Positions 2,673 through 30,941 of a DNA stretch of 32,000 bases are shown piece after piece. Position 1 is the stretch's first letter. Each line of letters begins with the position of its first letter. Both the position numbers and the translations under genes were made by a program. The notes under the pieces are model-generated. The model had not been told where the DNA came from. It worked only from the letters and a program-made list of their open reading frames with translations, and did not search any database. Source of the stretch: Nitrososphaera sp. (GTDB lineage Archaea > Thermoproteota > Nitrososphaeria > Nitrososphaerales > Nitrososphaeraceae); assembly GCA_037441265.1 (NCBI GenBank), contig JBBISN010000102.1, positions 7,987 to 39,986 of the forward strand. Reading direction: 5' to 3'.

Positions 2673-2696
2673 GTCGAAAACAAACGCCGGTGTTGT

Positions 2697-2704
2697 CTTT
2701 TAAG
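2697..2704 (+). promoter_or_regulatory. TATA-like box (CTTTTAAG) about 26 nt upstream of ATG 2727, implying a leaderless transcript
   Basis: AT-rich octamer in a 54-bp divergent intergenic region. The spacing to the start codon matches archaeal TATA-to-TSS distance. Confidence 0.35.
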
Positions 2705-2726
2705 CCGGAAAGCGCTTGCGATTGCG

Positions 2727-5267: not shown

Positions 5268-5300
5268 CTACGCACAGGCCTGTTCCGGTAAATCTGGTCG

Positions 5301-6059
5301 CTAGTTCTCTTCGCCGCCTTGATATGTGCCGCTTCCAAAAATCCTCAGCGCATTCTTTCCCTGCTCCGTCAGCAGCACATTACTCCTTCTTCCCCTAGTT
5401 CTTACCTCGACGAAATGCCAATGCGACTCCATAGGATCCAGTATGGCCCGCAACCTGCTGTGAGGTGCGCTCCGCGGCTGCGACGGCAGATACACCGGAA
5501 TCATCTTCACCTCGGGAGACTGAAGCTCTTCTATGAGTTCTTTCTTGCTCATCTTACCCCCCGCTTTGTCCAGGAAGCCCAACACCTGAAGCGATTCAGG
5601 AGATGGCATGTTTATCTGGTACACAGGAAGAAAATCAATTCCTGTCACCTTGCGCTTGTCTGTTCCTGCAGTCGGACCGCCTTCTTCATAGTCAAGTTTG
5701 GCATAGTATGGCGTACCTCCCCAGAGCATGCATGCAAGCATCCCTGCCATAGAAAGTATCTTGCTTCCAGTGGAGACGTTGACGTAGATGTGATGTCTTC
5801 TTTCAGAACCAAAAATGTCCCGGTATTTTTCGAGGCATGAGAAGAGATCCCAGATATTCGCATACACACGCTTGATTTCGATAGAAGGGTGCTTGGCAAG
5901 GGCCGCCTCGACCTTGTCTACAATTTCAGTGGCAGGATCTTGTTTTGAACGTGAAACAAGATAGGCCTTGTCGGCTCGCTGCTCAATTAGAGGCGCGGCT
6001 ACGCGTTGAACAGGGTCAAAGCCTACGGGGGCAACATGGATCCTGAGATTGCTTGTCAC
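5301..6059 (-). CDS. CARF-superfamily (HFX_2341/Csa3-like) N-terminal domain plus C-terminal wHTH transcriptional regulator
   Basis: N-terminus IHVAPVGFDPVQRV and NVSTGSKILSMAG match the Rossmann-like CARF/DxTHG-type pattern. The C-terminal SKKELIEEL...VLLTEQGKNAL segment is wHTH-like. Apparent GTG start. Confidence 0.55.
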   Translation of the reverse strand: MTSNLRIHVAPVGFDPVQRVAAPLIEQRADKAYLVSRSKQDPATEIVDKVEAALAKHPSIEIKRVYANIWDLFSCLEKYRDIFGSERRHHIYVNVSTGSKILSMAGMLACMLWGGTPYYAKLDYEEGGPTAGTDKRKVTGIDFLPVYQINMPSPESLQVLGFLDKAGGKMSKKELIEELQSPEVKMIPVYLPSQPRSAPHSRLRAILDPMESHWHFVEVRTRGRRSNVLLTEQGKNALRIFGSGTYQGGEEN

Positions 6060-6074
6060 AAGGACAAAAAAATA

Positions 6075-6107
6075 TTATTCACTATATTAAGCTTATTCAC
6101 GCTATTA
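6075..6107. promoter_or_regulatory. Two copies of TTATTCAC-NN-TATTA, 18 bp apart, in a divergent promoter; candidate operator
   Basis: 6075-6089 is ttattcactatatta and 6093-6107 is ttattcacgctatta, a 13/15 match. The first copy overlaps the TATA-like box of the minus-strand regulator gene. Confidence 0.4.
6082..6089 (-). promoter_or_regulatory. TATA-like box (TAATATAG on minus strand) about 26 nt upstream of GTG start at 6059
   Basis: Spacing and AT-rich composition. Confidence 0.3.
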
Positions 6108-6118
6108 ACATGAATGGC

Positions 6119-6127
6119 AATAAATAA
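6119..6127 (+). promoter_or_regulatory. TATA-like box (AATAAATAA) about 26 nt upstream of ATG 6149
   Basis: Spacing and AT-rich composition. Confidence 0.3.
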
Positions 6128-6148
6128 TTTTTTCCCACATCACAAGGC

Positions 6149-6580
6149 ATGGAATCAAGACAAAAAAACGCAGTCCTCCTGGACTGTTGCACGGTAATAG
6201 GCGCCCTCGACGGGCGGCCAAACGCAGTGGCGTTCAAGGAAAGGCTGAGCAAGCGCAAAGACGTGGCCCTTCTGGTACCTGACCTGGTAATATCAGAGGT
6301 CGCGAGGGTCGCCAGAATTTCTAAAGAAGCGGCCGAGCAGGCCGTCAGGTCATTTGCACACGGAAGCGAGATTGTTCGCCTAGAAGACGACGAGGCTCTG
6401 GTAGATGCGGTCGCCCTGACTGTGCGCTATGACTACTGTCACTACCCTGACAGCATCTACCTTGTCCATTGCCGGAACACCGGCGCAGTACTTCTGACAT
6501 ATGACAGAAAGCTGAAAGAAGTGGCCAGGATGGAAGGCATAATGGCATGCTCGCCTGACAACTTCAGGTTCTATCAGTGA
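6149..6580 (+). CDS. PIN-domain (VapC-like) nuclease
   Basis: Four acidic positions lie in canonical PIN context: LLDCC (D12), ISEV (E), YPDSIYLVHC (D), LLTYDRKL (D). Length of 143 aa fits. Confidence 0.6.
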   Translation: MESRQKNAVLLDCCTVIGALDGRPNAVAFKERLSKRKDVALLVPDLVISEVARVARISKEAAEQAVRSFAHGSEIVRLEDDEALVDAVALTVRYDYCHYPDSIYLVHCRNTGAVLLTYDRKLKEVARMEGIMACSPDNFRFYQ

Positions 6581-6586
6581 TGCATC

Positions 6587-6802
6587 ATGATGTCAGAGCA
6601 AGAAGTTGTAATTGAAGAGTCACAGGCGGACTATGAGTGTCCAAGCTGTCACACGTTGCTGACCATCTACTATGACGAAAAGGCGAGGTACGTATGCGAG
6701 AACTGCGATGAGGAACTGAGCCGCTTCGACCTCAACATGGAAGACGGCGACAACAATATTAGCACTGGATTCAGTGATCGATCTAGCAGGAGATTGTTCT
6801 AA
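6587..6802 (+). CDS. Small acidic zinc-ribbon protein
   Basis: CPSCH...CENCDE (CxxC x18 CxxC) with an acidic tail. It starts 6 nt after the PIN stop and ends 1 nt before the helicase ATG. Confidence 0.5.
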   Translation: MMSEQEVVIEESQADYECPSCHTLLTIYYDEKARYVCENCDEELSRFDLNMEDGDNNISTGFSDRSSRRLF

Positions 6803-6803
6803 T

Positions 6804-9800
6804 ATGGCACAGGCGACGACTGGTATTTCTCTAAATGAAGATCAGCGTTTAGCGGTCACGGCAAGCCCGGACCGCGCCCTTCTGGTAGTCGCCGGTCCTG
6901 GTAGCGGCAAAACCCGCGTCATCATAGAACGGGTAATTCACCTTGTGAAGAAAGGCGTCAAGCCGTCGGAAATCCTCTGCCTGACCTTCTCCGAAAAGGC
7001 GGCCGAGGAGATGAAGCAGCGGTTGGAAAAGAGGATGGACATGACTGAGATGGGCATAAGCACCTTCCATTCGTTTGCAAAGGAGGTCTTGGAGGACAAT
7101 GTGCTCGACTCCGGCGTGGGAGTTTCTTCGGGCGTGATCACAAAGTCCGCCGCCCTCGTCTGGGGACTGAAGAACATCGACAACTTCAACCTGCAGCACC
7201 TCGAGATAGGCAACAACGCCGTGGACCTCGTCCGCTCGACAATCGAGGGCATAAGCACGTTCAAGGACGAGCTCATTTCGCCGCAGGAGCTGGAGCAGTA
7301 CGTCAAGAACAAGCTGGAGCGGGAGATATCCGACAAGGAGAGGGACTTTGCCCAAAAGCTCTCCGACCTGTGCAGGGTCTACTACAAGTATCAGGAATTC
7401 CAGAGGGGCAAGGCGGTCATAGACTTTGACGACATGGTCCTCCTGACTATAGACCTCTTCAGGAAGAAGCCGAACGTGCTAGCCAAGTACCAGAAGAAGT
7501 ACAAACACATCTTGGTGGACGAGTTCCAGGACAACAACTACGCGCAGCTCGAGCTGGTGAAGATCTTGGCCAAGGCCGGAAACGTGACCGTGGTAGGAGA
7601 CGACGACCAGAGCATCTACAGATTCCAGGGCGCCTACCTGACGAACTTTCAGGACTTCAAGGACCACTTTCCAAGCACGACAGTGGTGGTGCTGAGCCAG
7701 AACTACCGCAGCACCAAGAACATCGTCAAGGTGGCAGGCCAGCTGCTGTCCGGGGTGCAGAAGAGGCAGCCAAAGGATCTGTTCTCAGAAAACGAGGACG
7801 GCGACAAAGTGGTCGTCGCGGGCTGTTCCACGGAAGCGGCCGAGGTCGAGTTCGTCGTCGGCAAGATCAGGGAGCTGCTGGGCAAGCCACTGAAGAGGAG
7901 GGACGGGACCGAGTCACCCGCGACTTACAGGGACTTCGTGATACTGTCGAGGAAGAAGATGGAGGGAAGAAAGTTCTCCAAGGCGCTGAAGGCCTACGGC
8001 ATACCTTCGGTCTACGTGGGCGAGGCCAACATCTTTGCCGCGCCCATAGTCCGCGACCTCATGGCGTACCTGAAGGTGGCCAGTTGCCCAACGACGGCCG
8101 GCGTAGAGATAACCCGGCTGATGAAGGGCCACGGCATAACCGAGCAGAACATCGCCAGGATAAACCACGCGGCCAGGAAGAAGGCAAGAGAAGACCCCAC
8201 AGACATGGACTTCGTCCTAGAAACGCTTGCCGCGTGCGACCTGCCCGGTGTGACGCAGAAGGACGAGTGTGCCGAGCTTGCGGAGCAGATCAAAAAGATA
8301 TGCGAGCTCGAATCAAAGGCCACGATAAGCGAGTTCGTACACAAGGTGATGATGTCTGTGTCAGACCTCTACAAGCGGACCGTGCTGTCAGACTCGCCGG
8401 AAAACAGGCGCAACAGGCTTCTGCTCAACGAGCTTTACAGGATAGCGCTGGAGTACGAGTCTCTCAACCCGCACGGGACACTGGACGACTTTCTGAAGTA
8501 CCTCAGCCTCATGGGCCAGTTCGACATCGAGCTGGCAGAGGGCAACGAGACGGACGACGTAGTGCAGGTGACGACGATACACCAGAGCAAGGGAAGGGAG
8601 TTCCCGATAGTTTTCGTGGTCGATGTCGCGGCCAACAGGCTTCCGCTGCGCTACCAGTCAAAGGAGTTCTATGTTCCGAACGACCTGTCGAAGGGCGTCA
8701 AAATCGAAGAGGACGAAAAGGAGCTGCACCTGCAGGAGGAAAGGAGGCTCTTCTACGTGGCCATGACCCGGGCTCAGAACTTGCTCTTTGTTACTTACGC
8801 GAAGAGGTACGGCCAGAACGTCAGGGATACCAGGCCGTCACCCTTTCTCGACGAGATAGGGTTCACAGACAATCCGTCTGTGGAGTTCGTGGAATTCAAG
8901 GGCTCGCCCGCCGGCGAGGCGATGCAGGCCGAAGAGAGGCTTGCCAGGATAAGGGAAGAGCTCCAGCTCAAGGCAGTGAAGGCGATAAACCAGATGCAGC
9001 TGAAGACGGCCGTGCAGCGGATAGTCGAGCTTGCGAGAGTGAAGCATTTCGAGGAGAGCGGGAGAACTGACGGCTTCGACCCTGCGGAGATACTGAAGGT
9101 GGACAACACCGACGGCAACCTCGACGCAGAGCTGGTCGGAAAGAAGGTGCCCCTTTTCAACAGGGAAGAGCTGCACCTCAGTGCCACGGCCGTGAAGACT
9201 TACGCGGACTGCCCGCTGAAGTTCAAGTTCGCCAACATACTGCAGGTGCCCGAGCCGCCCAGAAAGTACTTCGAGCTGGGTACTGCAGTGCACGCCGTGG
9301 CCCAGCACCTTACCGAGATGCAGAAGGAAGGAGTGAAGCCTACTGAAGAGCTGGCCTTCGAGCTTTTGGCAAAGGAGTGGAGATCCAACGCCTTCCAGTC
9401 CGAGACCGAGGAACGCCAGTCGAAGGAGAAGGCCAAGGAAATGCTGAGGACGTATCTGCGCTGGCTGGCTGGCTGCCAACCCCAACGCGCCCGTGGCAGT
9501 GGAGCAGCCTTTCCAGATAGAGGTGGGAGGAGTGCCCTTCAAGGGCTTCATCGACAGGATAGAGCGCACGCCTGACGGCGAATATGAAGTCGTGGACTTC
9601 AAGACGGGCGGCGTGTACGAGAACAGCAGGTCGATCAAAGAGGACCCGCAGATGAACGCCTACGCCCTGGGCGTGCAGAAACTCTACGGAAAGCTTCCCA
9701 AGAAAGCGTCGCTGTTCTACGTGCGGGAGGATGAGATAGTACCTTACGCGGTGACAGAGCAGCAGGTGAGCAAGGTGAAGGCCGCGATGGCAGGAGTCGT

Positions 9801-9975: not shown

Positions 9976-10004
9976 GGCGACTCCACATCTGGCGGTGGAG
10001 TCGC
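9976..10004. other. Perfect inverted repeat: 11-bp stem, 7-nt loop
   Basis: Sequence is ggcgactccac-atctggc-gtggagtcgcc. It lies between the helicase-nuclease stop (9903) and the IS110 transposase start. It could be a terminator-like hairpin or an IS end structure. Confidence 0.6.
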
Positions 10005-10016
10005 CATCACCAGAGA

Positions 10017-11126
10017 GTGAGCAAAATGGGTAAGAGGAAGAAAGTAAAATCAAGCCGCATGAACACGATGGTTGCAGCTCTTGACCTGAGCGACACGGAA
10101 GGAGTAACGACTGTACTCTCACCGTACGGAGACGTGACAGACAGCTTTACCATCCGCCTGGACGACCATGGGTTTGCGCAGTTTGCAGGCCGGGTACCAA
10201 AGGACGCGAAGGTAGCTTTCGAAGCAACAGGCATGGCGTACCCTGTTCACAGGGCACTTGCGTCCTACGGCTACGACGTGACAGTGGTGCACCCAAAGGA
10301 GCTTGCCTGGATTGTAAAGAGCAAGAAGAAGAACGACAAGGCCGACAGCCTGAAGATAGCCAAACTCCATATGTCAGGGATGCTCCCTGAATCACACCTG
10401 TTGGACCCAGAAGAGCAGGTGAAAAGGGACCTCCTGGTACAGCGGGTGAAGATCGGTAATGAAATTGGCAGGCTGAAGAACAGCATAATCTCCTACCTGA
10501 AGAGGGAGGGCATATACCACAAACTCCCTCCAAGTACTGACAACTTTTCTGACAGGAGAAGAAAGGCCATCTCCTCACTAAAGTTCAACGATGACCGGGA
10601 CCTTGTACTCCGCACGATGACAGACAGGCTAGACTTTCTGGAGAGACAGTGCGATGCCATAGAAGACAGGATAAAGCAGTACGCCTTCAAGAGCGATGAC
10701 GTCAGGCTGCTCATGACCATCGGCGGCGTTGACTACTACCTGGCATCCCTGCTGTCTTCGTACATAGGCGACGTCAACAGGTTCCCTTCAGACGACCACC
10801 TGGCCAGCTACTTTGGCATAGTGCCTTCAAACAGGGACAGCGGCAGCACTGTAAGGAGGGGCAGGATGGCAAAGGAAGGCCCCGCGGCTGCAAGGTGGGC
10901 GCTATCCATAATGGTGGACACGGTTATCAGGCAGAACAAGCCTATCAGGGAGTACTACCAGTCTGTCAAAGTGAGGACGGGCTCAGGGAGTATGGCCCAC
11001 GTATCCACCGGAAGAAAGCTTCTCAGGATGCTCCACCATATGCTAAAGACGAGACAGCACTGGAAGTGGGAGAACCCAAAACTCAGCGAGAAAAAGATTG
11101 CAAGGCTTGGAGGTGACACCGACTAG
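10017..11126 (+). CDS. IS110-family (DEDD) transposase/recombinase
   Basis: Motifs VAALDLSD, AFEATGMAY and KKNDKADSLKIAKL, plus C-terminal LMTIGGVDYYLASLLSSYIGDVNRFPSDDHLASYFGIVPSNRDSG typical of IS110/IS1111. The start may be GTG 10017 or ATG 10026. Confidence 0.8.
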   Translation: MSKMGKRKKVKSSRMNTMVAALDLSDTEGVTTVLSPYGDVTDSFTIRLDDHGFAQFAGRVPKDAKVAFEATGMAYPVHRALASYGYDVTVVHPKELAWIVKSKKKNDKADSLKIAKLHMSGMLPESHLLDPEEQVKRDLLVQRVKIGNEIGRLKNSIISYLKREGIYHKLPPSTDNFSDRRRKAISSLKFNDDRDLVLRTMTDRLDFLERQCDAIEDRIKQYAFKSDDVRLLMTIGGVDYYLASLLSSYIGDVNRFPSDDHLASYFGIVPSNRDSGSTVRRGRMAKEGPAAARWALSIMVDTVIRQNKPIREYYQSVKVRTGSGSMAHVSTGRKLLRMLHHMLKTRQHWKWENPKLSEKKIARLGGDTD

Positions 11127-11395
11127 GCTCAGGACATACCGGGACTGGGCAGCGGGCTGAACCACTTTGTGCAACATGAGCCTTCGAGCTCTTGGTTTTG
11201 AGTGTGGAGGCCTGCCTCCGCAAAACTATCAGAGTGCACCATCGAGTGCTTACGGGTGTGTGCGGAAAAGGCATGGCCAAGGTCTGCTGTTACCCCGGGT
11301 CCAAAGGAGCGTAGTCGTTATAAACAGGGAGGTGCTGAATAGAAGGGAAGCGCCAGCCCACGCGTTACACGGGTGCCTAGTTAGCGAATTCGTCC

Positions 11396-11860
11396 CTAAT
11401 AACAAGCAGGATTAAGCAATTCAGTATCACCAAATCCGCAATGAAATGCAAGCGTCACCCATAGCACAATTCCCATAACTATTATGACTATCTGAGATAT
11501 TACAGCGAAATGACGATCGAAGAACCCCTGTTCCTTAGAATCACGGGCAATAGATTTTTCTTTATCTTCTTGTGTAAACCACGGCGGGAATATCCTTTCT
11601 TCAATTGATATGCGTTTACGCACGTATTCAATTTCCCTAATATTTTGCGCCCAATGTGGGAACATAGCCCAGATACCATAAATGACGATCACATATGCAA
11701 CGCACAAAGCAATCCAAGCCGGCGACACAATGACCGTATTCCCAAACATTGTGAGAATCGAAAATGCACCAAATGCAAGCGAAACTACCAACCCTGAAGC
11801 TTCCATCCTTCCTTGCGTCAGTAGATTTAGCCGATCTCGAAGTGAGTTGATATCCGCCAC
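11396..11860 (-). CDS. Small membrane protein (about 3 TM), unknown function
   Basis: Hydrophobic helices GLVVSLAFGAFSILTMF, WIALCVAYVIVIYGIWAMF and VISQIVIIVMGIVLWVTLAF. The gene is low in G+C and sits between the two IS elements. Confidence 0.5.
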   Translation of the reverse strand: MADINSLRDRLNLLTQGRMEASGLVVSLAFGAFSILTMFGNTVIVSPAWIALCVAYVIVIYGIWAMFPHWAQNIREIEYVRKRISIEERIFPPWFTQEDKEKSIARDSKEQGFFDRHFAVISQIVIIVMGIVLWVTLAFHCGFGDTELLNPACY

Positions 11861-11885
11861 ATAAGCGGGAACAATGGGGAATTAT

Positions 11886-11903
11886 ATCTGAACTTTGGCA
11901 AAT
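11886..11903. repeat. Left terminal inverted repeat of the IS701-like element
   Basis: 17/18 match to the reverse complement of 13376-13393. Confidence 0.8.
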
Positions 11904-11973
11904 TTCATTTCACCACCATGTAAACAGCCCATTACTGCAACCCAATTAGCTTTGAACCTCCTTCCGCTGTCCC

Positions 11974-13197
11974 ATGATACCAATAGCAGGATTCCCGTCA
12001 GCCGTAAGTTCAGCGCTGCCGCTATTTGGCACGGTCTTTAACAGGCCGCAGCTGAGAAACTTTGCCACCTACGTCACCGGGCTCATGGTATCGCCAAACC
12101 GCACCGTATCGTACATGAACAGCCTGTTCTTTGCCCACCGCGACCAGAGCGCGCTGAACCACTTTATCACCGACTCTGGCTGGAGCGACGAGGAGCTGGA
12201 CAAAAAGCGGTACGAGCTCATACAGGAAGGGCTCAGCCGCGAAGATGGCGACGGCGTGCTGTCAATAGACGACACGCTGAACCACAAGACCGGAAAGCAC
12301 ATGGACCTTGCAGGCACGTTCTTTGACCATACGGAGGGCACGTACACGCTGGCACACGACCTGGTGACCTCGCACATAACCAGAGGACACAAGTCTCTGC
12401 CGCTTGACTTTGAGGTATACGCCAAGGAAGGCCAGGTACCGGACGGCGAGTTCCGGGACAAGAACACGATTGCACGCGACCTGATATCCAGAGCCAGCGC
12501 AAAAGGCGTGCCGTTCAGCTGTGTCACCGCCGACTCGTGGTTCTTCAACAGAGAGACCGTGTCTCTGGTACAGTCCCTCAAGAAGGACTGGGTGTTTGGC
12601 TGCAAGAGCAACAGGACTGCAATCCTCCCACGCGGGCCCACAAGCCTGTCTGAATGGGCAAAGACGATACCGAAGGAAAAGTTCATGCCAGTAAATGTAC
12701 GCTACAAGCGGGAGAAACGGACCTTCTACTGCTACTGCAAGAACGTCGTCCTGAAGAACCTGGGGGAGGTAAAGGTGCTTGTGTCTTACAAAAAGCCTGA
12801 CCTGAGCGGTGACCCTGTCTTTCTGTGTACCAACCGTCTGGACTGGGGTCCGGCCATGATTGCAGGGACGTACGCAAAGAGGTGGCGCATTGACGCTTTC
12901 TACCGCGATGCCAAGCAGAGCCTGGGACTTGGGGATTATGAGCTGCGCAAGATCAAAGGTGTCAACCGGCACATAACCATGGTCTTCATAGCCCACGCCC
13001 TACTGGAACTGGGCTCGGGACTATCAAAGCATGGCACCGAGGCTGTACAGGCTGGGGCCTGTCTTGACACCATAGGCTCGAAATGCCGCCACGCGTACAC
13101 CGAAGTCCTGACCTCATTTGTCGACCTGGTGCTGAAGATAGGGGAGAAGGTACGCGGCAGCGATGCTGTAGCGGCAAAGATTAGACCTTTTGCGTAA
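11974..13197 (+). CDS. IS701/IS4-family DDE transposase
   Basis: N-terminus FNRPQLRNFATYVTGLM...SALNHFITDSGWSDEEL is typical of IS701. Also LSIDDT and VTADSWF. The C-terminal signature reads YAKRWRIDAFYRDAK, i.e. Y-2-R-3-D-6-K instead of the usual Y-2-R-3-E-6-K. Confidence 0.75.
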   Translation: MIPIAGFPSAVSSALPLFGTVFNRPQLRNFATYVTGLMVSPNRTVSYMNSLFFAHRDQSALNHFITDSGWSDEELDKKRYELIQEGLSREDGDGVLSIDDTLNHKTGKHMDLAGTFFDHTEGTYTLAHDLVTSHITRGHKSLPLDFEVYAKEGQVPDGEFRDKNTIARDLISRASAKGVPFSCVTADSWFFNRETVSLVQSLKKDWVFGCKSNRTAILPRGPTSLSEWAKTIPKEKFMPVNVRYKREKRTFYCYCKNVVLKNLGEVKVLVSYKKPDLSGDPVFLCTNRLDWGPAMIAGTYAKRWRIDAFYRDAKQSLGLGDYELRKIKGVNRHITMVFIAHALLELGSGLSKHGTEAVQAGACLDTIGSKCRHAYTEVLTSFVDLVLKIGEKVRGSDAVAAKIRPFA

Positions 13198-23651: not shown

Positions 23652-24371
23652 ATGAGAAGCAAAGCGACAACGTCAGGGAAATGCATCTACTGCTCGCAGG
23701 CCTTCGCAGGTTCCCTGATGGGGCGCCATCTTAGGTCGTGCGCAGAGAGGGAGAGGTACCTGATGTCCGGTATCCCCGGTATTGCAGACAGGAAAGGTAA
23801 CGCAGGCGACGAGAACAAGACCCGCGACCGTGTTTTTCTTATCAAAGCCTCATCATTGTACGCACCGCAGTACTGGCTGTTCTTGGAGGCAAACGCAAGA
23901 TGCAGGCTCACAGACGTCGACTCGTTTCTCAGAGGGATATGGCTTGAATGCTGCGGGCACCTGAGCCACTTCGTAATCGGCGACGAGGAGTACGAATCAT
24001 ACCCGGATCCGGATTTTGGGAGCGATAAGGACATGCGTGTTGCGCTGGCCAGCGTCCTTGAACCCGGAATGACAGTCGACTATGAGTACGACTATGGCAG
24101 CACCACGGAACTGGTCCTCAAGGTCGTTGAAGCCCGGCCCGGGAAATTGAAGAGAGGTCCGGTGGTGCTTGCCGCAAGGAACGACCACATACATTATGAA
24201 TGTGTGTCATGCAAAAAAGCACCGGCCACTGATATCTGCTCAATGTGCACCTGCGAGGGACCTGAAGATACCTTCTGCGCAAGCTGCCTCAAACACCACA
24301 GATACGGGGAGGATATGGCCCTGCCGATAGTTAATTCTCCCAGAACCGGAGTTTGTGGATACATAGGATAA
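23652..24371 (+). CDS. MM3350/pRiA4b-ORF3-like domain protein with N-terminal C2HC and C-terminal Cys-rich zinc modules
   Basis: N-terminal CIYCSQAFAGSLMGRHLRSC. Core WLFLEANARCRLTDVDSFLRGIWLECCGHLSHF...VDYEYDYGSTTELVLKVVE matches the PRiA4_ORF3 pattern (xWRx...L.dLH..I...fGW...HLh.F...Y.YDfGd.W.h.i.le). C-terminal CVSCKK...CSMCTC...FCASCLKHH. Confidence 0.6.
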   Translation: MRSKATTSGKCIYCSQAFAGSLMGRHLRSCAERERYLMSGIPGIADRKGNAGDENKTRDRVFLIKASSLYAPQYWLFLEANARCRLTDVDSFLRGIWLECCGHLSHFVIGDEEYESYPDPDFGSDKDMRVALASVLEPGMTVDYEYDYGSTTELVLKVVEARPGKLKRGPVVLAARNDHIHYECVSCKKAPATDICSMCTCEGPEDTFCASCLKHHRYGEDMALPIVNSPRTGVCGYIG

Positions 24372-24619: not shown

Positions 24620-25195
24620 TTAGAGCCGGGCATCTTCTACGTGGTGTTCGTCGTGACCACTGTCCGCGCAGCTGTCACACAGGTATGCTGGCCGCATCGT
24701 CTCATTGGAACAGTCGATGCACACGCACGTGGCAGCAGCCTTTCTCCCTTTCTCCTTGCAAGTTACGCAATACCTGCCCCTCGTCTTGCTCCTGGCGACC
24801 ATTAAGGGGTACCTGCCGCTTGCAACATCAGCCGACAGAGCAGAGGTCACTTTTTCCAGTGTTATCACGTGCTGCACGCTGTCGCCAAAGTCGTACACAT
24901 ACTCGAGCCTGCCGCCCTCTGCGAGCAGGAGCGACTCGATCCTGTGTAACGATCCCGGGCCCGTGCCATCCGGGTAGATTTCCCCGAATCCCTCAGACCC
25001 CCATACCTTTCCAGGGTAGAACTCGCTCAGGTGGTCAAACGTGTCATAGTCAAATGCGTCGCGTATTACCGCGTCAAAGTCGCCCAGCGTCTGTTTCCCC
25101 AGGATTTCGAATGTACGCCATCTGCCTTTGTTGTGCTTCAGCGCGACCCTGAAGGTGTACACATTATCAGGAACGCCCCTTGCCTGTACCTTCAT
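24620..25195 (-). CDS. MM3350/pRiA4b-ORF3-like domain protein with C-terminal Cys/His-rich zinc module
   Basis: YTFRVALKHNKGRWRTFEILGKQTLGDFDAVIRDAFDYDTFDHLSEF...LEYVYDFGDSVQHVITLEKV, then C-terminal CVTCKEK...CVCIDC...LCDSCADSGHDEHH. Confidence 0.7.
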   Translation of the reverse strand: MKVQARGVPDNVYTFRVALKHNKGRWRTFEILGKQTLGDFDAVIRDAFDYDTFDHLSEFYPGKVWGSEGFGEIYPDGTGPGSLHRIESLLLAEGGRLEYVYDFGDSVQHVITLEKVTSALSADVASGRYPLMVARSKTRGRYCVTCKEKGRKAAATCVCIDCSNETMRPAYLCDSCADSGHDEHHVEDARL

Positions 25196-25308
25196 GCTGC
25201 GCAGCCGGAGAGGAGGCGAGTTAATATCAATTATGGCGCATTAGAGGGTTGCCCAGTCCCGCAGTCTTCAGGGACTGCAGCCAGCAGTGAAGCCTCTCGG
25301 GGCCGTCA

Positions 25309-26805
25309 TCACGTGCCTGGCTGGACGACTGAATACCCTATCTCCTTGAGCTCGAACTCGGTGGGCGATACCGCATGGAGCAGTGAATTGACTGCCGCCC
25401 TTCCGCGGATTGCGGCGTCTACGCACAGGGCGATGTCGGAGCTGTCGCACCTGCCGTCCGGCGCAAGAACCTTGAGCAGCCCTGTCGCGGTCTTTTTGAT
25501 GGCCTTTTCGTCCCTGATGGTTATGTTGCTCCCCTCCAGCCTTACCCTTTCAGAGATAATGTGCCCGAAGCTCTGGAGCGAGAGCTGGTGAAATACCTCG
25601 GACAGATAATCCGCGACAATCCCGTAACCGTTTGCAAGGTGCTCAGAACTCTGCTTTATTTTCGGCAGGTCCCACCCGGGGATGAAGGCGTGGATCCTGT
25701 CCAGGATGGCCGAATCACGCATGAAACCGGGCAATGCCGCGACCACTTCCTCCGGCTCCGGCCTGGGTCTGTTAAACTCGATGTTGCCCATGAACACCAG
25801 CGAACATGCAGAGTGGGCCTTCTTCGGGCCGCGCTCAAAGAAGCCGTCCACCATGTAGTCCTTCAGCTTTCCTATCATCTCCTCGCCGCTGTGAAAGGTC
25901 AGCCAGTTTATCTCGTCAAACGCGACGCAGTCGCGTATCCCTATCTCGCCTGCCGTCTTGGTGCTAATGTTGTAGAATATCGTGGCAGGGCTCACCTTTC
26001 CGCCGGATATCACGCGGGTGTGGTATGAAAGGTTCCTGTACAGGTACGTCTTGCCCGTGGCCTTGGGGCCAATCTCCAGGATGTTGGAATTTGCTTCCAC
26101 CAGCGGCACCAGCCGGCACAGCAGCAACAGCTTCTGGTCTGCCGTATACGAAGCCGGGTTGAGGCCGATGCTCGTCACCAGCAGGTCGGTCCATTCATCC
26201 CGCGAAAACCTTGAGCGCTGGGAGGCAAAGTTGGACAGGCTGACATTGGTCACCTGGAAGGGGGTGAACTTGGACATGATGATGGGTGTTGACGCGGCGG
26301 TGCCTTCCTTTGCGCGGGCCGGCCCGTCGCCGTCTGACGGGGGGAGGTACTTCAGGGTCGCTATGCCCCACATGCCGGACCGGAGGAGCTCGGCATTTTC
26401 GTCAAGGACCGTATTCAGTATCTGGGCATCGTGTACCCCTATGCAGGGGATGACCAGCCGGTGTTTAGCGGCCTTGATGTCCGTTTCCACCTTGAACTCG
26501 TCCATGAGCGTGTAGGACCCGGTATTCATTATGTCGTGCAGTATCTTGTCCTTGTCCCTGAGTTCTGGAAAGTGGACGTTTACAAAGTCAGCCAGTTTTT
26601 TCAGGCCGTCGTCGCCCCCATCGCTCCCGGAAAACTTGGCTACCAGGTACTCGGAGATGAACCTTGGCAGCCGGCTTATCTCCTGCGAATTGACAAGCCG
26701 CTTGTTCACAGCATAGGTGCCGAACACCTGCCGTATCTTGATGTCCGTCTCTGGCGAGGAAGGCAGGGGTTGCGATGGAGATGCCGGAGGCTGTTGCGAA
26801 GACAT
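25309..26805 (-). CDS. BrxL-like AAA+ ATPase (TIGR02688-type, Lon-related) lacking the C-terminal Lon-protease domain
   Basis: Collinear with BrxL: N-terminal ISEYLVAKF..., MWGIATLKY, RFSRDEWTDLLVTSIGLNP, Walker A LEIGPKATGKTYLY, Walker B CVAFDEI, LVFMGN, DSAILDRIHAFIPGWDLPKI, GYGIVADYLSEVF, IRDEKAIKKTATGLLKVL. The protein ends where the BrxL protease domain would begin. ATG 26805 is preferred over TTG 26841. Confidence 0.7.
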   Translation of the reverse strand: MSSQQPPASPSQPLPSSPETDIKIRQVFGTYAVNKRLVNSQEISRLPRFISEYLVAKFSGSDGGDDGLKKLADFVNVHFPELRDKDKILHDIMNTGSYTLMDEFKVETDIKAAKHRLVIPCIGVHDAQILNTVLDENAELLRSGMWGIATLKYLPPSDGDGPARAKEGTAASTPIIMSKFTPFQVTNVSLSNFASQRSRFSRDEWTDLLVTSIGLNPASYTADQKLLLLCRLVPLVEANSNILEIGPKATGKTYLYRNLSYHTRVISGGKVSPATIFYNISTKTAGEIGIRDCVAFDEINWLTFHSGEEMIGKLKDYMVDGFFERGPKKAHSACSLVFMGNIEFNRPRPEPEEVVAALPGFMRDSAILDRIHAFIPGWDLPKIKQSSEHLANGYGIVADYLSEVFHQLSLQSFGHIISERVRLEGSNITIRDEKAIKKTATGLLKVLAPDGRCDSSDIALCVDAAIRGRAAVNSLLHAVSPTEFELKEIGYSVVQPGT

Positions 26806-26876
26806 TTTACCGATACCTGAATCTCTCACGCGCGTCCACAAATACGAAGTATTTCATCGACATATCTGTACCTCCT

Positions 26877-28124
26877 TCACGTCAGCTCATCGATTATGCT
26901 GTCCCAGCTCCGGGACGTTTCTTTTGTGCGGCGAACGTCAGCGGGTACGCCTGCTGCGGCTGTGGCCTGGCTTGTCCTGTTTTCTCCTCCAGCAGAACGG
27001 CCGGCACCGGGCGGCCTCGTCGCCTGCTCCAGAAGGCTGTCGATTCCGATTCCAGACCGGACACCAGCCCCGGCTGCGCCTTCTGCACCGTCGAGAAACA
27101 TCTCCACCGTGCGGTCAGCTGTGGCCAACAGCCCCTTATAGTAAACGGTCAGGAAAGGAAGGGAATATTTCCTGCAGATATTTCCCAGGACTCCAAGGTA
27201 CACGGAAGTCGTAACCGAGAGGACATCTGGCAGGAAGGCGTTGTTATGGGTGTGCGTCGTATCGGCGGAGTAATATGCGAGCGCACAGCTCTTCATCATG
27301 GACTGGACCTGCTGAATGACGTCCAGGTCGTCCCGCCTGCTGCTGGTCTTGAGGCCCTCCGCCACTTCGTCCAGTAACTCCAACACGCGGTCTGATTGTA
27401 TTACAAAGCTGCTCTGCAACCCCAGCTGGCTTTCACCATACCCATCATACCCGATGTCATCCTCGCGGGACCTGGCGCCTTTGGTCTGCACAGTGGTCCT
27501 GAACGTGTCGCGCTTGCGCACCCATGCCAGCATCAGCGCCACGGCATGCGGACACGCGTCGCGCTCGTTGAAGGCGGAACAGTCGCAGTTTAAACCCGCA
27601 GCTGCCCTGTTGCCTTTGACCAGGACCTCTACTTCAGGTTCATGGTACACCGTCCCCCTTTCCCGGACCTTGCCGGTCAACCTGTTCCACATTACGTTCT
27701 TTTCAACAACGCTGCCGCTCATGAATAGAGTCAGGGCCTGGAAGTATGTGGTGCCGCGACGGAACATCAGTTCGATGTCACGTTCTGTCATGGAGAGCAA
27801 AGCTGGATCAACCAGGTCTATCAGGTTCATGACACCGGCATCTTTGAGCGATATGGTCTGCGGGACTGGATGGGCATCCCCGGGGCCTCCACCTCCAGCT
27901 TCCACTGGTTGCGTACGGGAAATGGCTGTTTGCACGAGGGACGCCACCTCCTTGGACAGGAGCGACATCGATTTTGTCACCGGCCTTTTTTTACTTCCCG
28001 CCCTCCCGAACATGCTTCCCGGTTTGTGAGAAGGGGCCTGCTGGATTAAAAACATAGCGGCACGTGACGACATGAAAATTTCCTCTGCACAAGGCCGCAC
28101 GTTGGCCAGGCCTGTCAATTTCAT
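26877..28124 (-). CDS. SWIM zinc-finger protein with uncharacterised C-terminal helical region (start codon uncertain)
   Basis: RRGTTYFQ...VRERGTVYHEPEVEVLV...GLNCDCSAFNERDACPHAVALMLAW is a CxCx(n)CxH SWIM signature in its usual beta-rich context. Alternative starts lie at 28073 and 27968. Confidence 0.65.
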   Translation of the reverse strand: MKLTGLANVRPCAEEIFMSSRAAMFLIQQAPSHKPGSMFGRAGSKKRPVTKSMSLLSKEVASLVQTAISRTQPVEAGGGGPGDAHPVPQTISLKDAGVMNLIDLVDPALLSMTERDIELMFRRGTTYFQALTLFMSGSVVEKNVMWNRLTGKVRERGTVYHEPEVEVLVKGNRAAAGLNCDCSAFNERDACPHAVALMLAWVRKRDTFRTTVQTKGARSREDDIGYDGYGESQLGLQSSFVIQSDRVLELLDEVAEGLKTSSRRDDLDVIQQVQSMMKSCALAYYSADTTHTHNNAFLPDVLSVTTSVYLGVLGNICRKYSLPFLTVYYKGLLATADRTVEMFLDGAEGAAGAGVRSGIGIDSLLEQATRPPGAGRSAGGENRTSQATAAAGVPADVRRTKETSRSWDSIIDELT

Positions 28125-28617: not shown

Positions 28618-28743
28618 ATGACGCAATGCGCGGTCTGCGGCCGCTACATGGCACCGATGTGCTACGAGTGCAACCGGCACCACCATCCCGAATGCCCGTG
28701 TCCCGCTTCTAAACGTCAGTCGCGGCGCGAGAAACACACCTAG
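28618..28743 (+). CDS. Possible 41-aa Cys/His-rich mini-protein (below the ORF-track threshold)
   Basis: The ATG-initiated ORF reads MTQCAVCGRYMAPMCYECNRHHHPECPCPASKRQSRREKHT. It has CxxC x8 CxxC plus an HHH/CPC cluster and GC-rich third positions like neighbouring genes. Its TAG stop shares a CTAG with the stop of the convergent helicase gene. Confidence 0.25.
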   Translation: MTQCAVCGRYMAPMCYECNRHHHPECPCPASKRQSRREKHT

Positions 28744-30941
28744 GCTATCTGCTTCACCTTCAGGCTCAACACTCCGTCCTGCCGGTAGAGCTCGCCTACC
28801 ACGTCAAAGGTCGCGCCCTTTTTCAGAAGTTCTCTGGGGCCATTGTAGTCGTAGTGGTTCAGCCTCGCCCGCCACTTTTTGTTTATCATGACGACAGCCT
28901 TTCCCTGCACCACCTTTTCAACGCGGATGGAGTAGATGTCGCCTTTTGCTGCAGCCAGGTTGTCTGCAAGGACCACCGTCCCTTCGTCCCTCCACGCCAG
29001 CCTCCGGAGCTTTTCGAGCTTCTTGAGCGCCTCGTTGAGCACGGGGTAGTCCAGGGACAGGTACTCGCGCAGGAGCTCTACGTCCGCACCTTTTACCCCC
29101 GCCTTTGCAAGCTCGGTGTGTATGCGCCTTGCAGCCCTTTCGACTTCGCGCCGAAAAGCCCCGGTGAGCATCTCCTCCTCAGTCGATATGGCCTTCTTCC
29201 GCAGCGTCTGCACTCTGTTCCTCACTTCGGCGTCCACCGCGGCGGCCTCGACAGGACCCTTTTTCCCTAGCTCCTTTTCCACCTCTTTCCGCAGCCGCTC
29301 CTCCGCCTTTGACCTCCACCCTTCAAGCGCGGCCAGCTCTTCTGCTGTCATGGGGTCTGGCTCAAGGAACGCCCTCTTTGCCGGCGTCAGGACCGCGTTT
29401 ATGGACGACAGCGACTCTTTCATCTTCTCCACCCGCCTCTTGCTTGCATAGAGGTGGCGGGTGTCTATGGTGTCGTTAGCAGCAAGTATCACCACGGAGC
29501 CGGCTGCCTTTCTGCCTGTCCTGCCCCTCCTCTGGATGTACCTTATCTCGCTTGGTATGGGTTCGTAGAATACCACCAGGTCCACCTCCGGGATGTCCAG
29601 ACCCTCTTCTGCTATGGACGTGGCAACAAGTACGTCAAATTCGCCTTCCCTGAAAGACTGGAGCACTGCAGCCTGTTCGTCCTGCTTCATGCCCTCGTCT
29701 CCCTGCCGCTTGGCCTGTCCGACGAACCTCGAAGCTTTGATGTCGTTCGAAGACAGCACTTCTACTATGTGCCTTGCAGTGTCGCGGTACTGGGTGAATA
29801 CCAGAACTCGACCCTGTTGTTTGTTACTTCCGGAGCCGCAACAATACTCCTTTACAAGCTCAACTATGCGCCTGGCCTTAGGGTGCTCCACCGGTGCTTT
29901 CTCAACCAGTGCCCTTACCTCCATTATCTTGGGGTCTTTGAGCAGTGCGGCATGCGTCCTGCCGCCTTCCTCCTCTATCCTCTCAAAGAAGGCCTTGAGC
30001 GAATGGGAGCCCTGGCTCTCTATCAGCTCGAGACAGTACATCAGCGTGAGCGCGGCCGACTGGTTCATTATGGCCACGTATATTGGACCACGCTGCTCCT
30101 CCATAGTGAGCTCTAGCCTGTACCTTAGAGCCTCCCCTGCATCTATCAGGTCGCGCTTGAATATCCACCGTGTGTCTTTCTTTTTGCCCAGAATACCGCG
30201 CTGGACAAGCCACCTGAGCTTTTCGTCAAGCATCGACCTGAGCACCGACGCAATGTAACGGTACTCTTCTGGCAGGTCGAACCACTCCCACTTTACCTCT
30301 ATGGGGTTGACGTACGGCTTGACGTCGCCGTCCTCTTCGCTCCTGTACTCGACGTGCTCTATGTACAGGTTGTCGCACACTTCCTGTATCCTTTCCCTCT
30401 TGGCCCCGGGGCTTGCGGTCATGGCAAGGACCACTGGGTGCATCGACTGGCCGACGTATTCCCTTGCTATAGCAGTATACGCATAGTCCTTCACCGCCCG
30501 GTGGACCTCGTCAAAGACCAGCAGGATAAAGTCCTTCAGGTGTAGCCGGCCCTCCTCAAGGTCGTTCCTCACTACCTCCGGCGTGGCAAAGACGAGCCTG
30601 ACGTCCCTCTTGTCCCAGACCGCCCTCCTTGCTTCAGGGACAGTCTTGCCCGTTACCATTGCCGCCTGCTCTTCAGGGATCTTGAGCACAGCTGAAAATG
30701 ACTTTAGGTGCTGGGACACGAGCGGGCGTGTAGGTGCCATCATAAGCACCCTTTTGTCGCGGTACTTGTAGAGGGTGTCCGCGCACACAAGGGCTGCTAT
30801 CATGGTTTTTCCCAGCGCAGTCGGCAGGATGACCAGGGTGTTTTTGTGGCTTGCAGCGTCGGCTATGTTCTTCTGGTATAGCCTGTGGTCGATGGCCCCA
30901 TTCCATACAAGGGGGTGTTCTGCAAAAGAGGCTTCCGTCAA
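28740..30941 (-). CDS. Hef/FANCM/Mph1-type SF2 helicase without an ERCC4 nuclease domain; C-terminal coiled-coil plus beta-rich domain
   Basis: Motif I LPTALGKT, II FDEVHRAV, III LAMTASPG, VI IQRRGRTGRK. An inserted helical domain lies between the RecA lobes. The C-terminal roughly 200 aa has no GDxnERKx3D nuclease signature. Confidence 0.75.
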   Translation of the reverse strand: MTEASFAEHPLVWNGAIDHRLYQKNIADAASHKNTLVILPTALGKTMIAALVCADTLYKYRDKRVLMMAPTRPLVSQHLKSFSAVLKIPEEQAAMVTGKTVPEARRAVWDKRDVRLVFATPEVVRNDLEEGRLHLKDFILLVFDEVHRAVKDYAYTAIAREYVGQSMHPVVLAMTASPGAKRERIQEVCDNLYIEHVEYRSEEDGDVKPYVNPIEVKWEWFDLPEEYRYIASVLRSMLDEKLRWLVQRGILGKKKDTRWIFKRDLIDAGEALRYRLELTMEEQRGPIYVAIMNQSAALTLMYCLELIESQGSHSLKAFFERIEEEGGRTHAALLKDPKIMEVRALVEKAPVEHPKARRIVELVKEYCCGSGSNKQQGRVLVFTQYRDTARHIVEVLSSNDIKASRFVGQAKRQGDEGMKQDEQAAVLQSFREGEFDVLVATSIAEEGLDIPEVDLVVFYEPIPSEIRYIQRRGRTGRKAAGSVVILAANDTIDTRHLYASKRRVEKMKESLSSINAVLTPAKRAFLEPDPMTAEELAALEGWRSKAEERLRKEVEKELGKKGPVEAAAVDAEVRNRVQTLRKKAISTEEEMLTGAFRREVERAARRIHTELAKAGVKGADVELLREYLSLDYPVLNEALKKLEKLRRLAWRDEGTVVLADNLAAAKGDIYSIRVEKVVQGKAVVMINKKWRARLNHYDYNGPRELLKKGATFDVVGELYRQDGVLSLKVKQIA

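Follow-up and report, generated by a model that had tools for sequence, protein, structure and literature searches.

A SWIM-domain protein paired with a short BrxL-type ATPase outside BREX in Nitrososphaeria: a candidate for interference with invading DNA

Genes and protein domains at the locus

The window, a stretch of 32,000 nucleotides from a Nitrososphaera sp. contig, contains three minus-strand open reading frames, all of which were found where the original prediction had placed them (Table 1), with the predicted intergenic distances of 113 nt between the MM3350-like gene and the ATPase gene and of 35 nt (TTG start) or 71 nt (ATG start) between the ATPase gene and the SWIM gene. The MM3350-like product comprises 191 and the SWIM protein 415 amino acids, and the ATPase frame encodes 510 residues if translation starts at TTG 26841 or 498 residues if it starts at ATG 26805, the latter being the more likely start and giving the length of P0001. 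The predicted domain families were likewise recovered, namely PRiA4_ORF3, BrxL_N together with BrxL_ATPase, and SWIM, which is borderline for the window protein and solid family-wide. PRiA4_ORF3 (PF07929; gathering score 26.6) is passed by the MM3350-like protein of the original prediction (E = 4e-15, 56.4 bits) and by the product of a second, convergent gene (E = 3e-6, 27.5 bits), the two paralogs sharing 29 % identity (E = 6e-10).

Table 1 Features of the SWIM–BrxL locus and its MM3350-like neighbours (positions in the window)
Feature	Position	Strand	Basis and remarks
Second MM3350/PRiA4_ORF3 paralog, convergent with the first	23652..24371	+	Pfam; outside the conserved module
MM3350/PRiA4_ORF3 protein, C-terminal Cys/His module	24620..25195	-	Pfam; outside the conserved module
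Short (Lon-less) BrxL-family AAA+ ATPase	25309..26841	-	Pfam, TIGR02688, PADLOC, 8emc alignment
Walker B D309-E310	25912..25917	-	Translation; 8emc alignment; invariant in 27 clade members
Walker A GPKATGKT	26047..26070	-	Translation; invariant in 27 clade members
SWIM-domain partner gene	26877..28124	-	ORF, Pfam SWIM, family alignments, AF2 model, Foldseek
RSWD motif (R405-D408)	26901..26912	-	Translation, 31-sequence alignment
SWIM zinc-binding motif CDCSAFNERDACPH (C180, C182, C191, H193)	27546..27587	-	Translation, family alignments

The ATPase contains a BrxL_N domain (PF20442; E = 1.3e-27, residues 38-165) followed by a BrxL_ATPase domain (PF13337; E = 5.4e-107, residues 188-499) and is matched by the PADLOC BrxL model (1e-104). 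It passes the NCBIfam equivalog TIGR02688 (449 positions) with 455.8 bits at a cut-off of 329.3 and stays below the cut-off of the long-form model TIGR02653 (316.6 vs. 628.25 bits). The predicted collinearity with BrxL was confirmed, residues 31-497 corresponding to residues 8-464 of the 679-residue Acinetobacter BrxL (8emc; E = 3.5e-80); as the alignment ends at residue 464 of 679, the ATPase stops ahead of the Lon-like domain. The missing domain, taken in the original prediction for an oddity or truncation, turned out to be neither, and the reading of the ATPase as an orphaned truncation was rejected because the protein passes TIGR02688 and represents an established, type-4-like short form; BrxL of type-4 BREX has been described without any C-terminal extension (PMC12839542). 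Besides the Walker motifs, further AAA+ positions are invariant across the 27 clade members. E310 aligns to E280 of Acinetobacter BrxL (8emc), whose exchange in the E280Q variant abolished phage restriction (PMC10164562), and K123 aligns to R104, a DNA-contact residue of 8emc. Judged from these alignments, the ATPase motifs are intact and the positive pore residue is conserved.

The SWIM partner starts with a disordered N-terminus, continues with a domain that combines helices, a beta-sheet, and the SWIM zinc finger, and then with a domain of four helices, behind which a low-complexity linker leads to the motif helix at the C-terminus. A database homolog (P0121) begins at the internal ATG 28073. 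Against Pfam SWIM (PF04434; gathering score 19.6), the window protein reaches 19.3 bits, and the domain is matched independently by 12 of 31 partner relatives (E ≤ 0.01; best 2.2e-6); all eight tested distant profile matches exceed the gathering score. The four residues of the CxCxnCxH signature are invariant in the 16- and 31-member family alignments, and zinc binding is predicted from this signature. The RSWD motif, with R, W, and D invariant and S almost so across 31 sequences, is located behind the disordered linker and opens a short terminal helix (residues 406-414 in the AF2 model; mean pLDDT 73.9, core >85, linker disordered); it may serve as a docking peptide for the ATPase. A Foldseek search with the model returned ZSWIM8 (PDB 9rwz) as the best and sole high-probability match (0.93). 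Profile searches detected no sequence relationship to other SWIM proteins beyond the SWIM region of about 100 residues, and the partner family is tiny, with 31 representatives among 1.84 billion at E ≤ 1e-10.

In agreement with the original prediction, searches of the window ORFs with Pfam and PADLOC revealed no PglZ, PglX, BrxA, BrxB, or BrxC, and none of the ORFs scanned carries a methyltransferase or PAPS-reductase domain. DUF499/BrxC had no match in the window or in the SWIM-clade loci, and neither a bacterial PglZ query nor a PglX-like query gave any match across the SWIM-clade loci. An overlapping contig, which extends about 1.9 kb beyond the right edge of the window, encodes a tyrosine integrase and an unknown protein there and no BREX gene such as PglZ or PglX.

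Conservation and genomic contexts of the SWIM–BrxL pair

Loci containing BrxL were collected by pattern-seeded scans of up to 80 loci each, with 167 loci among the matches listed. In all 29 loci with a BrxL identity of 57 % or more to the window protein (about 20 distinct loci of Nitrososphaerales and Nitrosocaldaceae, among the matches listed and counted only where the contig extends far enough upstream), the partner-family HMM matches the same-strand ORF directly upstream of BrxL, and it has no match in those of the 167 listed loci in which BrxL identity is 51 % or lower. The same arrangement is present in three additional loci (L168-L170), and a reverse look-up from the partner relative P0128 led to a BrxL gene downstream (L173). 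The 15 homologous loci measured have an intergenic gap of between -26 nt and +33 nt, compared to 35 or 71 nt in the window. The divergence of the two proteins is correlated (Spearman 0.88, 120 pairs), the median identity over these pairs being 26.8 % for the partner and 68.6 % for BrxL, and for pairs with a BrxL identity below 75 % about 24 and 65 %, respectively. The SWIM partner evolves much faster than BrxL, and the two genes are strictly adjacent and diverge together.

The pair, composed of the SWIM gene followed by the gene of the BrxL-type ATPase, is specific to the ammonia-oxidising Nitrososphaeria, and the real unit is very probably a two-gene SWIM and short BrxL operon that excludes MM3350. 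Of the cassette originally proposed, the link between the ATPase and the upstream SWIM protein stood, and the membership of MM3350, which is no conserved neighbour, did not. Among species-representative genomes the pair occurs in six, all of them metagenome-assembled and none from a cultured isolate, including cultured Nitrososphaera. A literature search gave no paper connecting BrxL with SWIM, which is in line with the earlier statement that no named defence system is known to combine the three families.

In a neighbour-joining tree of 141 BrxL proteins, the SWIM-linked proteins form a single clade, which is adjacent to a DUF499-linked clade and nested among archaeal short-BrxL clades, each with its own neighbour genes; the remaining clades accompany a PglX-like methylase, a five-gene cassette, or PglZ. 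With Nitrosocaldaceae in basal position, the topology is also compatible with vertical descent with losses. The ATPase lineage probably split off from archaeal short BrxL proteins serving BREX-related modification systems, shed all modification genes, and acquired the SWIM partner.

The genomic contexts of the pair vary. Plain housekeeping settings were found in L006, L007, L013, L168, and L169, and an identical housekeeping setting in three assemblies of Nitrosocaldaceae, which looks like stable vertical inheritance. In L010, L091, and L170 the pair is followed immediately by genes for XPB and Bax1 (DUF790), and in L011 these genes immediately precede it, representing two distinct arrangements in two subclades. 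Other contexts include TnpB (adjacent in L001), PIN-MazE, PIN, and an IS/integrase-rich region. The window itself harbours many IS110 and DDE transposases and a HerA/TrwB-like ATPase, and the gene of a Hef-like helicase, which is not conserved with the pair across related loci, adjoins the pair upstream. A defence function had been deduced from the location of the genes as cargo beside those for conjugation, IS elements, and integrases; this argument is weaker than it seems, since orthologous pairs are also found in housekeeping contexts and beside XPB-Bax1.

Proposed mechanism and alternative roles

Taken as a whole, the best explanation for the locus is a SWIM and short BrxL pair which acts outside BREX and interferes with invading DNA, an explanation for which we see about as much chance of being right as of being wrong. 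As the C-terminal domain mediates tail-to-tail dimerisation of BrxL rings, the ATPase, which lacks it, would be expected to form a single ring encircling DNA. Specificity or loading would be the task of the rapidly diverging SWIM protein, whose zinc finger and helical core would recognise either a structure in the DNA or a protein of foreign origin. Its invariant RSWD helix, at the end of a disordered tether, would bind to the ATPase ring and thereby permit loading; we infer this loader and docking mechanism with evenly balanced confidence. The most likely role would be a modification-independent block on the replication of invading DNA (viruses, integrative elements), to which we give slightly less than even weight, and in our ranking interference with invading DNA comes first and host DNA repair a close second. 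More tentatively, ammonia-oxidising archaea may use the pair as an immune system that is self-contained and independent of modification, in which the SWIM protein senses the invader and docks via its RSWD tail. If true, the BrxL ring ATPase would be an autonomous effector blocking the replication of foreign DNA, and BrxL would be re-targeted by exchanging its partner module (PglX, PglZ, DUF499, or SWIM). The absence of a methyltransferase leaves no evident means of self/non-self discrimination, which counts against a defence role. The pair is furthermore not consistently found within defence islands, repair helicases adjoin it at several loci, and no relative was detected in the viral contigs searched, all of which also speak against such a role. 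A helicase activity of BrxL has not been demonstrated (PMC10164562).

The strongest competitor is a chromosomal accessory of DNA repair or replication restart, in which the SWIM protein, in concert with XPB-Bax1 or Hef, would bring an MCM-like ring to DNA that is damaged or stalled, a role we consider possible, if rather unlikely. Such a role would have a parallel in eukaryotes, where SWIM proteins (Sws1/Shu2/ZSWIM7) partner RecA-family ATPases. The recurrence of XPB-Bax1 beside the pair, the Hef-like helicase of the window, the unchanged housekeeping context in Nitrosocaldaceae, and a tree that fits vertical inheritance all favour this role. BrxL, moreover, resembles MCM (PMC10164562). However, a repair helicase is close to the pair in only about 4 of about 20 distinct loci listed, the distribution over six species-representative genomes is patchy, the fast divergence of the partner would be unusual in a core repair factor, and the nearest BrxL clades all stem from modification- or restriction-type loci.

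It is improbable that the pair serves a mobile element instead of the host; on an integrative element, for instance, it could provide an ATPase for replication initiation or maintenance together with the loader of that ATPase. The transposases and the HerA/TrwB-like ATPase of the window, the integrase just outside, the TnpB genes next to the pair in L001, and the MCM-like ATPase would fit this role, but genes of integrases, transposases, or other element functions are missing near the pair in most orthologous loci, the position in Nitrosocaldaceae is stable and chromosomal, and a search of 2.9 million viral and proviral contigs found no relative.

The original prediction, one new three-gene defence cassette of SWIM protein, BrxL-like ATPase, and MM3350/PRiA4_ORF3 zinc protein, possibly with the helicase, is very unlikely. 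It rested on the co-directional and closely spaced genes of the window, and locus L171 repeats the arrangement, being the sole locus of the census in which the MM3350 gene recurs; the BrxL of L171 is, however, 100 % identical to that of the window (P0001) and the gene order is the same, so that L171 probably derives from the same organism and lends no independent support. No relative of either MM3350 paralog (E ≤ 0.01) is present in any of the 167 BrxL-containing loci listed, including the about 20 distinct SWIM-BrxL loci, and the downstream neighbour of BrxL varies across all orthologous loci and is often encoded on the opposite strand. In addition, the 113-nt gap preceding the MM3350 gene contains an AT-rich stretch, and this gene probably has its own promoter region; its convergent paralog suggests a separate two-gene unit. 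Both MM3350 genes and the gene of the Hef-like helicase lie beside the pair by chance.

Least probable of all is a piece of an ordinary BREX locus whose core genes (PglZ, PglX, BrxC) lie just beyond the window or were recently lost: the ATPase passes the BrxL equivalog model and the window extends just 3.9 kb to the right of the module, but no BREX protein was found among the window ORFs or in the 1.9 kb past the right edge, PglZ, PglX-like, and DUF499 proteins have no relatives in the orthologous loci, for which the flanks covered reach up to 10 kb per side, and in every clade member the SWIM gene lies upstream of BrxL, where other clades have PglZ or PglX.

Comparison with known systems

Nitrososphaeria are ammonia oxidisers of soil and hot springs. 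Knowledge of how viruses and mobile elements are controlled in this group is very sparse, and the pair would add a lineage-specific candidate system. The contribution of BrxL to BREX requires other BREX proteins, and its loader or licensing factor has not been identified (PMC10164562); BrxL without modification machinery and with one dedicated partner would offer a minimal two-protein system for studying how BrxL is recruited to DNA and acts on it.

SWIM proteins of eukaryotes and bacteria often serve as adaptors beside ATPases; some are attached to SNF2 ATPases, and Sws1/Shu2 acts with Rad51 paralogs. Like the SWIM adaptor ZSWIM8, the partner described here carries a helical domain behind its CxCxnCxH zinc finger. 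In contrast to known SWIM adaptors, its helical domain and RSWD tail are confined to the partner family, and a BrxL-type partner is unreported in the literature searched.

The BrxL of the Acinetobacter type-1 system (8emc/8emh), to which the window ATPase is homologous over residues 8-464, is a DNA-dependent ATPase with an MCM-like fold, forms rings around dsDNA with the DNA in the pore, and dimerises via its C-terminal domain (PMC10164562). The window ATPase lacks this Lon/RadA-like domain of about 200 residues, which is responsible for tail-to-tail ring dimerisation, and it is found outside BREX, whereas Acinetobacter BrxL functions only inside a six-gene BREX system. With the short BrxL proteins (TIGR02688) of type-4 BREX and some type-1 loci it shares the BrxL_N and AAA+ domains without C-terminal extension, the ATPase motifs, and the DNA-pore residue. 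Unlike these, it is not encoded together with PglZ, BrxC, PglX, or BrxP. A SWIM gene always precedes it, and it belongs to its own clade confined to Nitrososphaeria.

Other archaeal short-BrxL cassettes in our census consist of a PglX-like methylase and BrxL, of a DUF499/BrxC-like protein, BrxL, and proteins of 300 and 125 residues, or of five genes (methylase-like protein of ~990 residues, ~1087 residues, BrxL, ~273 residues, and ~171 residues). They share with the SWIM pair the same ATPase family and clade-specific partner genes immediately alongside, but their methyltransferase or BrxC-like genes reflect a restriction-modification logic, and the SWIM pair has neither. Since the set of partners is fixed within each archaeal short-BrxL clade and differs between clades, the comparison suggests that BrxL is a reusable module and not a part of BREX only.

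The conserved gene neighbourhood of BrxL

ORF calling recovered, at the same positions, the three co-directional minus-strand ORFs on which the original prediction of a defence cassette composed of a SWIM protein, a BrxL-like ATPase and an MM3350-like protein was built. The latter two assignments were upheld by Pfam (BrxL_N 1.3e-27 and BrxL_ATPase 5.4e-107 for the ATPase; PRiA4_ORF3 for the MM3350-like protein, whose Cys/His tail additionally gave a SNAPC3-like match), whereas the SWIM call was marginal for the window protein itself (19.3 bits, gathering score 19.6). PADLOC designated the ATPase as BrxL (1e-104), gave only a weak PDC-S62 match for the SWIM protein (E 0.0027) and none for the MM3350 proteins. 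In the identical database protein P0001, BrxL starts at ATG 26805. The window gave no matches when scanned for Rfam families and tRNA genes.

Features of the window and of related contigs (L-numbers) discussed in the text
Feature	Location	Strand	Remarks
Unknown ORF	first-named member of cluster 447-9575		741 aa
HerA/TrwB/mad8-like ATPase	2727-5267
CARF + winged-helix protein	5301-6059		PADLOC CARF3 5e-50
PIN protein	6149-6580
UvrD helicase fused to PD-(D/E)XK nuclease	6774-9575
IS110-family and DDE transposases	10017-13197		mid-window
MM3350/PRiA4_ORF3 paralog	23652-24371	+
MM3350/PRiA4_ORF3 ORF	24620-25195	-	191 aa; Pfam PRiA4_ORF3 4e-15
BrxL ATPase	25309-26841	-	510 aa from TTG or 498 aa from ATG 26805
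Upstream ORF	26806-26862	-	18 codons
SWIM partner	26877-28124	-	415 aa; marginal Pfam SWIM
Hef-like SF2 helicase	28740-30941	-
Tyrosine integrase	L172 1-1302		about 0.7-1.9 kb past right window edge
XPB helicase + Bax1 nuclease (DUF790)	L010 3423-6741; L170 8836-12154; L011 5835-8653		adjoining the pair
Five-gene short-BrxL cassette	L036 3249-12300		example span

The neighbourhood of BrxL was surveyed in 80 loci from species-representative genomes, 80 from metagenomes and a dozen annotated contigs, in which ORFs were called and then searched with profiles. An HMM of the SWIM-domain protein, hereafter the partner, matched the ORF directly upstream of BrxL in 29 of 29 listed loci (about 20 distinct) with a BrxL that shares at least 57% identity with that of the window; these belong to Nitrososphaerales, Nitrosocaldaceae and Nitrosothermus, and listed loci with a BrxL identity of 51% or less gave no match. 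The two genes are separated by -26 to +33 nt at 15 homologous loci, as is typical of operons, and by 35 or 71 nt in the window, and in a reverse lookup a fragmentary partner relative (P0128) again had BrxL downstream. None of the 167 listed BrxL-containing loci holds a relative of the MM3350 paralogs (E<=0.01), and these genes recur only in L171, a contig whose BrxL (P0001) is 100% identical to that of the window and which probably stems from the same organism. The gene located 3' of BrxL is different in each lineage and often lies on the opposite strand. Since at the loci surveyed a BrxL of this kind always has the partner upstream, MM3350 is without relatives and the downstream gene varies, the conserved unit consists of two genes, partner and BrxL, and not of three; an orphan BrxL working with a SWIM protein was thus borne out, and the cassette including MM3350 had to be abandoned.

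The median pairwise identity is 26.8% for the partner versus 68.6% for BrxL (24 and 65%, respectively, for pairs with a BrxL identity below 75%), so that sequence change is much more rapid in the partner than in the ATPase. Over 120 pairs, partner and BrxL divergence correlate closely (Spearman 0.88), and therefore both genes are inherited and evolve as a unit.

Three further components were considered and rejected: a conserved small gene preceding the partner (ORFs of 72-102 aa at five loci could not be aligned and are mutually unrelated), the Hef-like helicase, which accompanies the pair in the window only, and XPB-Bax1, which adjoins it at a minority of loci. The two convergent MM3350 paralogs share 29% identity (E 6e-10), both end in a Cys-rich zinc-like module, in one case matching the SNAPC3 C-terminal region, and look like a separate small unit. 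Between the partner stop codon and the BrxL ATG, the window contains an 18-codon ORF (MSMKYFVFVDARERFRYR) with AGGAGG 6 nt upstream and a stop 1 nt before that ATG; it could act as a coupling device or reflect chance, and homologous loci have almost no gap at this site.

A short-form BrxL in the absence of a BREX core

The ATPase aligns with residues 8-464 of the 679-residue Acinetobacter BrxL (8emc; E 3.5e-80) and, as had been proposed, is collinear with it up to the point where the Lon-like domain would start. The lack of this domain is no anomaly, contrary to the view of a truncated protein: the ATPase passes the NCBIfam equivalog TIGR02688 (455.8 bits, cut-off 329.3), which has only 449 positions and therefore describes the short form, and fails the long-form model TIGR02653. 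The best 120 homologs in a collection of 5.8 billion proteins have the same two domains and comprise 450-520 aa, with two longer ORFs and a small number of fragments as exceptions, and BrxL of type-4 BREX is without any C-terminal extension according to a 2026 survey (PMC12839542). In agreement with the original prediction, Pfam and PADLOC searches matched none of the window ORFs to PglZ, PglX or BrxA/B/C. Within about 1.9 kb beyond the right edge, covered by a 3.1-kb overlapping contig found from the 108-aa ORF of the window, there are no BREX genes either, and a tyrosine integrase is present instead.

In a neighbour-joining tree of 141 BrxL sequences, all SWIM-linked proteins form one clade beside a small DUF499-linked clade. 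Other short-BrxL clades of archaea go with a PglX-like Eco57I/N6 methylase of about 1200 aa, with DUF499 plus 300-aa and 125-aa proteins, with the five-gene cassette described below, or with a 545-aa protein, and the bacterial long BrxL goes with PglZ. On the simplest reading, the SWIM-linked clade would descend from a BREX-related BrxL that shed its modification partners within the Nitrososphaeria lineage and acquired a SWIM protein as partner.

A five-gene short-BrxL cassette of Thermoproteota, for which we found no description, encodes a methylase-like protein of ~990 aa, a protein of ~1087 aa, BrxL, and proteins of ~273 and ~171 aa, the three besides the first and BrxL being without a Pfam match. 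It occurs at ten loci (L021, L031, L035, L036, L043, L044, L047, L049, L059, L062) and more than 40 metagenome loci; the layout looks BREX-related, with the large protein as a possible divergent PglZ. At L027, L052, L053 and L020, a short BrxL (at about position 10001 where not otherwise listed) has housekeeping genes alone upstream (polyprenyl synthase, DUF354, CTP synthase, molybdopterin oxidoreductase), and therefore truly solitary BrxL proteins may exist in other clades.

The SWIM partner family

The partner family is very small: a full HMMER scan of 1.84 billion cluster representatives yielded 31 members at E<=1e-10; word-index searches found only 5-6 relatives, as their prefilter is unsuitable for a fast-evolving and partly low-complexity family. 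The residues of the SWIM signature CxCxnCxH (C180, C182, C191, H193) are invariant in alignments of 16 and 31 members, K319 and Y320 are so in the former and nearly so in the latter, and the C-terminal RSWD motif (405-408) follows a variable low-complexity linker. Pfam SWIM is matched individually by 12 of the 31 members, and distant matches of the partner profile are confined to the SWIM region, all eight tested being bona fide SWIM proteins. Two relatives of 537-538 aa (P0132, P0147) carry an extra N-terminal extension of ~180 residues with a second SWIM finger.

An AF2 model from the 31-sequence alignment (mean pLDDT 73.9; 33.5 and unusable with eight sequences) shows confident cores at residues 45-210 and 230-350, disorder at 1-40, 215-229 and 352-405, and a terminal helix at 406-414. 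The sole high-probability Foldseek match was ZSWIM8 (9rwz; probability 0.93, E 0.024); viral structures gave nothing significant, and a PDB sequence search with the partner profile gave chance-level matches only.

Proposed mechanism and biological role

The N-terminal and AAA+ domains of Acinetobacter BrxL form a hexamer or heptamer, which assembles on dsDNA with ATP, and its C-terminal domain mediates tail-to-tail dimerisation of the rings; restriction was abolished only by the Walker B mutant E280Q, and the need for a loader was raised by the authors (PMC10164562). In the window ATPase, both Walker motifs, A (GPKATGKT) and B (D309-E310; in the alignment, E310 corresponds to E280), are intact and invariant across the clade, and the DNA-contact residue R104 has K123 as its counterpart in the alignment. 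With these features, but without the domain that dimerises the Acinetobacter rings, the ATPase is expected to form a single ATP-dependent ring encircling DNA. The obvious candidate for a targeting or loading subunit is, we infer, the SWIM protein, whose folded core would serve in recognition and whose linker would act as a flexible tether, and the invariant terminal RSWD helix looks like a docking peptide.

As to function, a role in conflict or defence ranks first, at somewhat below an even chance, because the pair appears to descend from BREX-type loci, the partner evolves very fast, the distribution is patchy (at least six species-representative genomes, all MAGs), and the pair is found in the context of TnpB, PIN-MazE and PIN elsewhere and of IS110 and DDE transposases, CARF, UvrD-nuclease and HerA-like genes and a nearby integrase in the window. 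A function in DNA repair, which we rank second and consider rather unlikely, is favoured over defence by XPB-Bax1 immediately adjoining the pair in two distinct arrangements (L010/L091/L170; L011), the Hef-like helicase upstream of it in the window, the identical housekeeping position in three Nitrosocaldaceae assemblies and the ordinary metabolic neighbours at other loci; it also speaks against defence that no self/non-self mark is evident and that viral copies were not found, a scan of viral contigs yielding no relatives of the ATPase. XPB-Bax1 lies downstream of the pair in one subclade, and a second subclade has it upstream. The Hef-like protein, for which no exact match is on record, scores just under the NCBIfam Hef cut-off (603 bits, cut-off 610), is without the XPF-type nuclease region and terminates in a different domain. 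The cluster at 447-9575 resembles a defence island, and the region with the transposases and the integrase is possibly a mobile element that has integrated.

The ATPase family and its short form, SWIM fingers and MM3350 are already known; full-text literature searches turned up neither a paper connecting BrxL with SWIM nor one on the pair, and SWIM is absent from the 2026 BREX survey (PMC12839542). What is new here is that a BrxL apparently derived from BREX works with a SWIM partner of its own, an arrangement specific to a single archaeal class.
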